A stretch of DNA of 64,000 nt, taken from NCBI RefSeq assembly GCF_003991155.1, contig NZ_CP031293.1; one strand, given 5' to 3'. Below the pieces are notes generated by a model, which saw nothing but the letters and a program-made list of their open reading frames with translations, ran no database searches and was not told the origin of the DNA. The DNA is from Escherichia coli. GTDB taxonomy: Bacteria; Pseudomonadota; Gammaproteobacteria; Enterobacterales; Enterobacteriaceae. How positions within the stretch are numbered: the first letter of the stretch is position 1; each line of letters begins with the position of its first letter. A program made the position numbers and the translations under genes. This document shows, in pieces, positions 9,443 through 14,066 of the stretch.

Positions 9443-9784
9443 TTAAAAATCGGAATGATCCATATATTCTATATGCTCATCAGAAAGTCCATCTGGATAT
9501 AACTCTCTTGGATAATCACTATCTAAAATTGCTAGGAAGTTATTTATAGTATTTTCCAATGCCTCATCTACTGTTTTTCCCCAGCCAATAGCACCTTCGG
9601 GACAATCATCAAATTTCCGTTTAATCATTACATTTGTAATCCCCATGTAACTCCCATCCTGAGACTCTCGTATTTTTATTTTTACTTTTGCGCTAGGGAT
9701 AACACCAAACATCCAAATTACAAACTCGGCTTCAACTTTCTCTACTTTAGATACACTGCGTATTTTCATTTGATGCCAGCCCAT
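9443..9784 (-). CDS. Putative immunity protein for the main Rhs toxin
   Basis: Small ORF 10 nt 3' of the Rhs stop; likely start at MGWHQMKIRS (9784). No motif-based support. Confidence 0.5.
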   Translation of the reverse strand: MGWHQMKIRSVSKVEKVEAEFVIWMFGVIPSAKVKIKIRESQDGSYMGITNVMIKRKFDDCPEGAIGWGKTVDEALENTINNFLAILDSDYPRELYPDGLSDEHIEYMDHSDF

Positions 9785-9794
9785 ATCTTTTCCT

Positions 9795-12700: not shown

Positions 12701-13883
12701 ATTCTGCCATAAAACCATTGTCATCATACTGGCAGGTCACAAGACGCTGACGCTGCGGCGTTGCCAGGTCAATGCTCATCAGCTGAGCCTGTTGCCAGGC
12801 AAGGGCGAGCATATAGCCATCGCTGTGACGGATTTCTGTCAGCAGACCATCAGTGCGGATAAAATCAATCCGGTTGCCATAATTATCGAAGACAGCGGAC
12901 AACCGCCAGACGCCATTGCCTGCCGGGGAAAAGAGCTGTGTCTGCTGCGAACGGCGATCGAAAACGCTCACGCCATCGCGCAGGCTTCCCGTCAGCCGGT
13001 AGTACGCCTGGCGTGAGTTCACTGCACCGCGAAAGATACCGTCCTGCGGCAGGCGGTAATACAGTACAACGCCTTCACTGTCGGTAAAATGCAGCCGGTT
13101 ACCCTGTATCGTCAGCGACGCTGACCACTCATCGGTCCATTTCGGGCCGAAAATCCCGGTCCCCCTGGCCTGTGAGCGGTAAAAACGCGAGAGCGTCAGC
13201 GGCAGGGAACCCGGCAGCGAAAGCACGCTGAAATGCTGGAGAAAATCGCCGGTGCCAATATCCACAGGCTCACCGGGTTTGGTGCACAACTGAGCACCAA
13301 CACATTTACTCTGATCACCAGTTCCCTCGGTTTCACCTTTAATATTTGCGCCATCCTGGCCTTCGGGTATGACATCATCCGCCAACTTTTCTGCGTCACT
13401 GACAACATCGTCTGCTTTGTTTACCTTCAGCAGATCGGCGGTGAATTTCCCCGCCGCTGCTTCTTCTCGTGCCAGTTTACTGGCAGTCCGCATCGCTCTA
13501 AGACCCACGAACCCGCCTCGGGCCAGACCATATCCTCCCAGCGCCAGCGAGCCATGGTCATAAATCATGCCGCCAATTTCCTGGTTCCTGTTGCTCATTT
13601 CCAGACGGTACATGTCCAGATTGAAATCTCCCGCATGCTCCCGGAGATCTCCGCCCATGTTGTACATATCCTCGCCAATATCATCCATGCCCATCGCAGA
13701 AAGCATGGCGCCGTTCATCTGCATTTCTCCGGCATACTGCATGGTGGCCCCCTGGCCTATCATCGTCGCCATATCCGGGAACTGGTTCCAGAATGCTTTG
13801 GCAGCACCAATAGCCAAATCAAGCTGGACTGCCGAAGCTTCAATTTTCGCCCGACTTTCATCCATCTGGATCATCAACATCAT
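9795..13883 (-). CDS. Rhs-family YD-repeat toxin (core plus variable C-terminal toxin domain); frame open upstream to the IS boundary at 13994
   Basis: 1362-aa ORF with many YD repeats (YRYDxxGRL, YxYDxxGxL), the core-terminating ...[40 protein letters not shown] motif, then a ~95-aa unrelated tip. N-terminus is not the canonical E. coli Rhs MSGKPAARQGD start and is Gly/Ala/Met-rich. Confidence 0.9.
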   Translation of the reverse strand: [1362 protein letters not shown]

Positions 13884-14066
13884 GTCCCAGATACTTTGCT
13901 CTTCTTTTGTTTCTGGCTCTGGCGCAGGGTCAGCTTCGCTGGCGGAAATAGCGGCTTCAGGGGGCTGACCGATAATTAAACCCGTCGTATTATGTGTAGT
14001 GGCACAGTAAATTTGGCCACCTGATTAAAGGTGATATTCTCACCTCAACACAAAACAGGTGACTTA

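Follow-up and report, generated by a model that had tools for sequence, protein, structure and literature searches.

Does the long Rhs reading frame that ends against an insertion sequence in Escherichia coli contig NZ_CP031293.1 still encode a toxin that can be delivered, or is it what remains of one? The window considered here, i.e. the whole 64,000-nucleotide stretch of DNA that was analysed, carries what is very probably the decayed remnant of a T6SS Rhs effector cassette on a small tRNA-Asn integrative E. coli island. The class of system is already well known, and the member found here is ordinary as well as decayed. The attachment end of the island and the Rhs gene with its parts are arranged as follows.

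6009-6084, plus strand: tRNA-Asn, attachment end of the island with the Rhs locus
6227-7513, plus strand: tyrosine integrase, at the same attachment end
9795-13994, minus strand: 5′-truncated Rhs effector gene, 1399 codons, frame open to the IS end
13275-13994, minus strand: N-terminal linker of the remnant (aa 1-240), Ala/Gly/Met-rich, with no Pfam match and no TM-like stretch
13056-13274, minus strand: DUF6531, an Rhs N-terminal plug-type domain (aa 241-313; Pfam, E 7.4e-17)
10572-12536, minus strand: YD/RHS repeat shell (aa 487-1141; Pfam and NCBIfam)
10092-10316, minus strand: RHS-associated core ending in ...YIDPLGL (aa 1227-1301; TIGR03696, 84.7 bits against a cut-off of 32.5)
9798-10091, minus strand: 98-aa toxin tip, predicted BECR-fold RNase of an unnamed family, with invariant H31, H35, Y47 and G96

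The frame runs over 4.2 kb without a single stop or frameshift and is matched by several domain models; it is therefore not a chance product. The original prediction, made from the sequence of this locus, described an Rhs toxin with a YD-repeat core and a variable tip, a description upheld by the YD repeats (TIGR01643, E 2.5e-52, in an NCBIfam scan of the whole ORF), the TIGR03696 core, seven RHS repeats in Pfam (PF05593, E<=0.001) and the allele of ESBL 15, which is 94% identical up to DP(L/F)GL and continues into an unrelated tip. DPLGL is thus the boundary between a conserved chassis and a variable tip, and the unrelated C-terminal stretch that had been put at about 95 aa measures 98 aa. 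YD repeats, a DPxGL core, a variable tip and, probably, a downstream immunity gene are common to this gene and the classical E. coli Rhs proteins (RhsA-E; NF041261), but its N-terminus is of the DUF4150 class rather than the MSGKPAARQGD PAAR class, and the locus lies on the tRNA-Asn island. The non-canonical N-terminus that had been noted is apparent from the NCBIfam score of the remnant with the classical RHS_core model NF041261, 212.4 bits, which is below the curated cut-off of 2000.

The N-terminal stretch had also been described as Gly/Ala/Met-rich and more like a secretion-associated membrane region. Its composition is indeed unusual (A 13%, G 12% and M 7.3% in the N-terminal 245 aa of the remnant, compared with M 0.9% in the repeat region), but the membrane reading is ruled out by hydropathy, as the highest 19-residue Kyte-Doolittle mean is 0.94, below TM level. 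The stretch looks like a linker, placed between a lost PIPY domain and DUF6531 and 94% conserved in the ESBL 15 allele.

What has been lost becomes visible when the window is set beside related genomes and beside three further features.

13995-15252, plus strand: IS3-family element copy 1, 1258 bp, adjoining the Rhs gene where its 5′ end is broken
41764-43021, plus strand: IS3 copy 2, in direct orientation relative to copy 1, a single mismatch between the two
43022-43352, minus strand: DUF2169 chaperone gene broken off by IS3 copy 2 after codon 110 of 392, leaving a stump

Intact alleles of 1517 aa occur in strain 980-2 and one other genome and have 416 bp more at the 5′ end than the window, which is identical to the 980-2 sequence up to about position 13992-13994 and then lacks these 416 bp. 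The absent segment encodes about 118 further codons, the start of the protein included, so that the remnant corresponds to aa ~119-1517 of the intact allele. The intact N-terminus is the Pfam Tox-PAAR-like domain PF13665 (DUF4150, PIPY; aa 16-123, E 2.4e-32), with the P-V-P-Y version of the PIPY motif, and in aa 1-240 of the ORF in the window Pfam finds no PAAR or PAAR-like domain. The suspicion that the true start had been lost at the IS boundary is thereby confirmed, and the comparison with the intact alleles shows that the entire PIPY domain is missing. In ESBL 15, a 392-aa DUF2169 gene directly precedes and overlaps the intact Rhs gene. The DUF2169 stump of the window lies 29 kb from the Rhs remnant, and in H1-type genomes stump and remnant are found on opposite sides of one single IS3.

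This arrangement resembles that of the DUF2169-dependent PIPY T6SS effectors (VP1415 of Vibrio parahaemolyticus, and those of P. aeruginosa and of the Agrobacterium Tde2-type; PMC11883445), with which the intact alleles share the PF13665 start and a preceding, overlapping DUF2169 gene. In these systems, a DUF4150/PIPY domain and VgrG make up a functional spike only with the help of the DUF2169 partner (PMC11883445). The cassette described here differs in that its cargo is a full Rhs cage and in that no vgrG is adjacent, the intact island of ESBL 15 included; neither the annotation of the 28-kb ESBL 15 locus nor that of the regions surrounding window-type loci contains one. The window, moreover, has lost the PIPY domain and keeps just 110 codons of DUF2169, at a distance of 29 kb.

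The intact cassette, as seen in other genomes, is ordered as a DUF2169 chaperone gene, a PIPY(DUF4150)-Rhs-toxin gene and a probable immunity gene; the PIPY domain would cap the VgrG spike with the aid of DUF2169, and the C-terminal toxin would be enclosed in the shell of YD repeats. In the window, about 1.2 kb has been replaced by an IS3 element, and the lost stretch comprises DUF2169 codons 111-392, the promoter-proximal region of the Rhs gene, its start codon and the whole PIPY domain. The remnant therefore lacks a native start as well as the spike-docking domain and the chaperone. Since the PIPY domain is lost and only a 110-codon stump of DUF2169 persists, the effector, judging from its sequence, almost certainly could not be loaded onto a secretion spike, and the 1399-codon remnant frame is best regarded as a pseudogene whose product would not be deliverable. 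Some expression of the frame, from an internal start or by read-through, might still occur. The truncated allele is the commoner one: among 5,426 complete E. coli genomes, 44 contain 80% or more of the locus used as query, and about 31 carry the truncated and about 13 the intact allele.

Two alternative accounts of the front end have to be weighed. RefSeq annotates, in many genomes, a 1362-aa CDS that starts at the first ATG (9795-13883, minus strand), and this annotation, together with the uninterrupted 4.2-kb frame and the odd composition of the first 245 aa, could be taken to mean that the gene is complete from ATG 13883, with a new Gly/Ala/Met-rich secretion or membrane domain, and functions without a PAAR-type domain. 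Such a reading is very improbable and is largely refuted by the intact alleles: alleles 100% and 94% identical are longer by 118 codons, which include a PAAR-like domain, and in them the Gly/Ala/Met-rich stretch is internal. The frame, furthermore, stays open for 37 codons above ATG 13883, straight into the IS end; no segment reaches TM level; and no Shine-Dalgarno-like sequence was found ahead of ATG 13883. A promoter scan, which gave no more sites than shuffled sequence does (six compared with 5.2), found no promoter-like site on the minus strand upstream of this ATG. The origin of the truncation, examined by comparing the junction types of the window, 980-2 and H1-type genomes, is less clear-cut. 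Copy 1 is bounded by the terminal inverted repeats TGTAGTGG...CCACTACA and encodes an IS3 transposase (NF033516, 264 bits against a cut-off of 160, NCBIfam); its flanks differ (ATG and CAT), and it has no target duplication of its own. The single IS3 of H1-type genomes, in contrast, has 3-bp ATG repeats on both sides, and 3 bp is the length of target duplication made by IS3-family elements. An IS3 that was not the agent of the deletion, and inserted in or beside an older joint that had brought DUF2169 codon 110 against Rhs codon 119, would account for these repeats. This scenario is nonetheless unlikely: 3 bp would match by chance in one case out of 64, insertion exactly at the older joint would be a coincidence, and IS3 copies abut other broken genes, namely a second Rhs fragment at 41282-41812 and a truncated integrase in strain 980-2. 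A second, different IS3/Rhs junction, moreover, sits 59 bp upstream of the intact start. The other broken genes and this second junction are consistent with a history of repeated IS-associated deletion and of IS x IS recombination. The original claim of truncation by IS3 thus stands insofar as the Rhs start is missing beside the element; in view of the ATG flanks in related genomes, IS3 itself is a candidate rather than an established cause of the deletion.

If the front of the gene is decayed, what do its intact rear parts encode? The domain search of the C-terminal region that had been suggested as a check gave, in a Pfam scan of the C-terminal 204 aa, no match to the tip, even at E<=10 and with Colicin_D included; the tip family is unnamed. 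Neither an NCBIfam scan of the whole ORF nor a PADLOC scan of the tip assigned the tip to a family, and its homologues have no precomputed Pfam entry for the tip domain. Among the family searches on the tip and the small downstream ORF, PHROGs gave only a faint RelE-like hint (E 0.048). A word-indexed protein search returned one tip homologue; the family is visible only by exhaustive HMMER search, which yielded 420 representative clusters at E<=0.001. The domain occupies the extreme C-terminus in 149 of 151, and its carriers include RHS, PT-HINT, PT-VENN/DUF637 and filamentous-haemagglutinin N-terminal domains. The family has the signature W-x-x-G-S...H-[FY]-x-K-H-G-x-E-V-G-A...Q-Y...R-Y-x-K-N-G-x-Y-I-D...S-F-G; across 66 homologues H31, H35 and Y47 are invariant, and 90% or more of them retain K50, R75, Y76 and K78. 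A conserved set of His, Lys, Arg and Tyr residues is typical of metal-independent RNases.

The AlphaFold model of the tip (pLDDT 93.3) has the BECR fold, and all of its significant structural neighbours are RNase toxins: CdiA-CTs, colicin D and E5, BrnT, RelE and YafQ. The single tip sequence gave nothing above noise against the PDB, and the family profile retrieved 8ey4 at a marginal E of 0.13. This entry, the CdiA-CT of E. coli O32:H37 (PDB 8EY4), has the motif H-x-x-K-H-G-x-E...Q-Y in common with the tip; a literature search on 8EY4 and the O32:H37 CdiA toxin found nothing. Like this CdiA-CT and the tRNase domain of colicin D (1TFO, 1V74, 5ZNM), the tip serves as the C-terminal part of a polymorphic toxin, but identity is only 11-18%, the tip rides on an Rhs/T6SS carrier and not on CdiA or a colicin, and the immunity protein is unrelated in predicted fold. 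On the strength of the structural model, the tip is probably a BECR-fold RNase, a fold that does not predict the RNA target. Once delivered, it would be released at DPLGL and act as a metal-independent BECR-fold ribonuclease, and by analogy with colicin D and several CdiA-CT toxins its most likely substrate would be tRNA. The active site would include H31 and H35, the invariant histidines of the motif H-F-x-K-H-G-x-E.

Downstream of the tip lie a small gene and a second toxin/immunity unit.

9443-9784, minus strand: 113-aa ORF, probably the cognate immunity gene, separated by 10 nt from the Rhs stop TAG, with a GAGGA Shine-Dalgarno sequence
8685-9403, minus strand: orphan Rhs C-terminal fragment, about 105 core codons, DPLGL and then a different 98-aa tip
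8389-8682, minus strand: 97-aa ORF, probable orphan immunity gene by position only, 2 nt after the orphan tip

The 113-aa ORF is probably, on sequence evidence, the cognate immunity gene, as originally predicted, and the support is indirect: its coupled position behind the toxin and the setting of two of its homologues. The 10-nt spacer between the Rhs TAG and the ATG of the ORF, AGGAAAAGAT, contains GAGGA, and a promoter-like site upstream of the gene (9872-9843) is only a hint, given the background of the scan (6 against 5.2 in shuffled sequence). A word-indexed protein search found three homologues. In P0032, on an unrelated metagenome contig (L008), a homologue of the ORF (28% identity, E 4e-11) is run together with a homologous toxin domain, in an orphan toxin/immunity array; another homologue, P0153 (L006), sits amid SUKH-3, DUF7674 and PoNi immunity genes in a poly-immunity array. 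Other toxins of the tip family precede unrelated small proteins, YxiJ in one locus (L007) and a 132-aa protein in another (L010); the pairing of toxin and immunity protein is therefore not universal. The predicted fold of the 113-aa protein is beta4-alpha, weakly like the HicB N-terminal domain and dsRBD modules, and the protein would protect the producing cell by binding to the toxin and blocking it.

Both functional assignments have competitors. The tip might not be a ribonuclease at all, i.e. it could be a BECR-like fold with another activity or an inactive domain; family annotation is absent everywhere that was searched, and identity to solved RNases is only 11-18%. All significant structural neighbours are nevertheless RNase toxins, the conserved His/Lys/Arg/Tyr set is that of metal-independent RNases, and the domain is always in the toxin position of polymorphic toxins, which makes a different activity improbable. 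The idea that the ORF at 9443-9784 is an unrelated passenger, with the true immunity gene elsewhere or lost, is given little credence as well. It would suit an ORF that has no family in Pfam, NCBIfam or PADLOC scans, and a toxin family of which several members precede unrelated proteins; yet position and ribosome site suit an immunity gene, in each of the 44 genomes with most of the locus the match extends over the ORF, its homologue in L008 comes immediately after a homologous toxin domain, and that in L006 lies inside a poly-immunity array. With RNase tip and cognate immunity gene as the preferred assignments, the broader proposal is that the tip represents an uncharacterised BECR RNase family, absent from Pfam, of at least 420 clusters, neutralised here by an equally unnamed immunity family, a proposal that we consider evenly poised. 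The carriers of the tip family may comprise Rhs, PT-HINT, CdiA and PAAR-like proteins of both Gram-negative and Gram-positive bacteria.

The orphan unit recalls the main/orphan rhs locus of Salmonella Typhimurium LT2 (Koskiniemi et al. 2014, PMC3967940), in which a main rhs gene with its immunity gene is likewise followed by an orphan core fragment and tip with an immunity gene of its own; the 97-aa ORF has no family match. In both loci, main gene and orphan share a direct repeat of the core, here 300 nt at 85% identity (8986-9285 and 10096-10395), which could mediate tip swapping, and the Rhs remnant and orphan tip are still available as raw material for recombination. In contrast to LT2, the main gene here is beheaded, and a recombinant would still be without a start codon and delivery domain.

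The locus provides a clear natural example of the decay of a T6SS effector cassette, in which the docking domain and the chaperone were lost at an insertion sequence and the toxin tip and immunity gene persist. Automated annotation presents the truncated allele as a normal CDS, which inflates effector counts for such strains. The tip is the sole part of the locus with discovery value: it belongs to a BECR RNase family of considerable size, as yet without a name, which lends itself to naming and characterisation. The immunity gene, equipped with its own ribosome site, may still protect its carriers against relatives that harbour the intact allele.

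The Rhs gene in the window is an open frame whose 5′ end opens straight into an IS3 element. All the features that the original prediction had described at this locus were confirmed on re-examination, and the elements relevant to its history are the following.

9795-13994, minus strand: Rhs open frame, 1399 codons read up to the adjoining element, 1362 aa from the first ATG at 13883
9443-9784: small ORF, 113 aa; the ten bases AGGAAAAGAT between the Rhs stop and the ORF provide a GAGGA ribosome-binding site
13995-15252: IS3-family element, copy 1, 1258 bp, with terminal inverted repeats and a transposase above the family cut-off
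41764-43021: IS3 copy 2, the same 1258-bp element in direct orientation, with one mismatch between the copies
43022-43352: DUF2169 stump, codons 1-110 only, abutting IS3 copy 2

The predicted YD-repeat core, DPxGL boundary and unrelated tip are all borne out: NCBIfam models identify YD repeats (E 2.5e-52) and an RHS-associated core domain (aa 1227-1301), Pfam adds DUF6531 (aa 241-313) and RHS repeats (aa 487-1141), and the core terminates in ...YIDPLGL, followed by a tip of 98 residues. The N-terminus is non-classical, as proposed; the classical E. coli RHS_core model of NCBIfam has a cut-off of 2000 bits and gives this frame just 212. The first 240 aa match no Pfam family; their Ala/Gly/Met-rich composition had been likened to a membrane region, an idea excluded by hydropathy (best 19-residue mean 0.94). 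This stretch, internal in the intact protein and conserved in the allele of strain ESBL 15, is a linker.

The locus region is chromosomal in E. coli, with at least 80% of the locus present in 44 of 5,426 complete genomes, and RefSeq already lists its sequence with generic names. The Rhs locus belongs to an island beside nac and cbl that has tRNA-Asn and a tyrosine integrase at its boundary; the stretch separating this integrase from the Rhs modules (7637-8266, plus strand) encodes a toxin of the RelE/ParE family (TIGR02683) and its antidote (TIGR02684). Thirteen of the 44 genomes retain an intact 5′ end. In two of these, 980-2 and UID2309220003, the allele equals that of the window except for an extra 416 bp between the Rhs frame and IS3; it encodes 1517 aa, and its N-terminal 123 residues constitute a Pfam Tox-PAAR-like domain (PF13665, also called DUF4150 or PIPY; E 2.4e-32) with a P-V-P-Y motif. 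In 11 further genomes the gene is 94-95% identical, and a 392-aa DUF2169 gene directly precedes and overlaps it. Over 1419 residues the allele of ESBL 15 keeps 94% identity; past DP(L/F)GL it diverges completely, with another tip and another downstream gene. In sequence comparison, such a shared body with a switched tip and partner is the pattern classically seen in polymorphic toxins.

The window frame starts at about residue 119 of the 1517-aa allele, and has therefore lost all of the PIPY domain together with the start codon and what lay upstream; the suspicion that the true start had been lost at the IS boundary was correct. DUF4150 domains, renamed PIPY, build a working spike with VgrG only together with the DUF2169 protein that is their cognate partner (PMC11883445). 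No Shine-Dalgarno-like sequence stands ahead of the ATG at 13883, nor did a promoter scan find a promoter-like site upstream of it on the minus strand. Because PIPY is deleted, DUF2169 is cut to 110 codons and both of these expression signals are missing, the 4.2-kb frame is probably a non-deliverable, non-expressed remnant. The intact form of the locus is a member of the DUF2169-dependent PIPY-Rhs T6SS effectors, whereas the window copy, with PIPY absent and DUF2169 incomplete, lacks the defining features of a deliverable effector.

How the 5′ end was lost is best considered from the IS3 junctions, which are of three types. In H1-type genomes the Rhs remnant and the DUF2169 stump are separated by a lone IS3, which takes the place of about 1.2 kb and has ATG on each side (18690-18700 and 19950-19960 in comparison locus L001). 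In the window these two flanks are separated onto two direct IS3 copies enclosing about 26.5 kb, which include the core genes yeeJ (-like Ig protein), shiA, amn and yeeN plus a defence cluster. In 980-2, 59 bp separate IS3 from the intact start downstream of it, and a second copy adjoins a truncated integrase. Related genomes either are arranged like the window or have one IS3 and lack the 26.5 kb; recombination between IS3 copies is therefore implied, and the window arrangement fits it.

The remaining 31 of the 44 genomes match only the 44 bases up to the break, and in all 17 of them that were listed the break point is exactly that of the window. The Rhs-side and DUF2169-side flanks are both ATG (13992-13994 and 43022-43024), resembling a 3-bp target duplication, yet intact alleles have about 1.2 kb between them; the match is either due to chance or the result of insertion at an older deletion joint. 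The ATG on both sides of IS3 would suit a deletion made by something other than IS3 itself, but this is unlikely given that the break coincides with IS3 and that IS3-associated rearrangement is common in the region.

The window also holds further Rhs remnants and a three-gene cluster.

8389-9403, minus strand: orphan Rhs module that follows the main gene; a core of about 105 codons, then DPLGL and another 98-aa tip
38265-41812, minus strand: second Rhs remnant array
39346-40737, minus strand: 463-aa Rhs fragment with its own tip, then small ORFs 38834-39349 and 38265-38789
41282-41812, minus strand: Rhs C-terminal fragment, 5′ end cut by IS3 copy 2, then ORF 40851-41303
31497-36891, plus strand: three-gene cluster of a radical-SAM protein, a 135-aa ORF and a 1358-aa STAND NTPase

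The orphan tip (NADCVWKAADIK...) contains Cys/His/Asp, differs from the main tip and has no Pfam match; a 97-aa ORF begins 2 nt after it. The main gene and the orphan fragment 8685-9403 have in common a 300-nt direct repeat (85% identical), and this main/orphan layout parallels the rhs locus of Salmonella LT2 (PMC3967940). Within the three-gene cluster, the radical-SAM protein resembles prokaryotic viperins (pVip, E 5e-20), the 135-aa ORF has no match and the NTPase is Avs2-like (PADLOC Avs2 E 7.7e-116; NCBIfam 276 bits against a cut-off of 1000); the linkage of viperin-like and Avs2-like genes may merit separate study. Directly right of IS3 copy 1, upstream of a 2684-aa Ig-like (YeeJ-type) gene (17169-25223), lies a pair (15464-16717, plus strand) consisting of a 320-aa ORF that matched no family and, after it, an 87-aa stand-alone PAAR protein (16454-16717) scoring 32 bits, below the NCBIfam cut-off of 124.

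The domain search of the main tip matched no Pfam family, and a word-based search gave almost no matches, while scanning 1.84 billion representatives exhaustively with HMMER recovered homologues in 420 clusters (E<=0.001), labelled hypothetical at source and free of Pfam domains over the region. The domain forms the extreme C-terminus of 149 of the 151 retrieved proteins; its carriers include RHS, PT-HINT and DUF4280 proteins, a PT-VENN/DUF637 CdiA-type protein and a filamentous-haemagglutinin-type protein. Across a 66-member alignment H31, H35, Y47 and G96 are invariant, and W16, G19, K50, R75, Y76 and K78 nearly so. The AlphaFold model from this alignment is confident (pLDDT 93.3) and consists of three helices and then a four-stranded sheet. 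Its significant structural neighbours are all RNase toxins (CdiA-CTs, colicin D and E5, BrnT, RelE and YafQ), with the same leaders in Foldseek, and the family profile aligns to the CdiA-CT of E. coli O32:H37 (8EY4) via a common H-x-x-K-H-G-x-E...Q-Y motif. The predicted structure shows a BECR fold, from which we infer an RNase, most likely a tRNase.

The small ORF, proposed as an immunity gene 10 nt after Rhs, matched no Pfam, NCBIfam or PADLOC family, and just three close clusters of relatives were found. One relative (P0153, 57% identical) lies within a run of the known immunity genes SUKH-3, DUF7674 and PoNi; in another protein, P0032, a homologous toxin domain runs on into a small-ORF homologue (28% identity, E 4e-11), with a TNT fragment and Imm63 on one side and a further small gene on the other. 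Position and association with toxin and immunity genes thus make it a well-supported candidate immunity gene. Other tip homologues precede different small proteins, as polymorphic toxin families often show: one, a free-standing 98-aa protein, is paired with a YxiJ-family protein (L007, 3214-3946) and another with an unrelated 132-aa protein (L010, 2814-3861), and therefore one toxin fold seems to pair with several immunity families.

Overall, the locus is well explained and holds nothing mechanistically surprising. Within a known fold class, the tip represents a new sequence family that has no name, and the sole point of some value lies in the identity and target of this toxin family.
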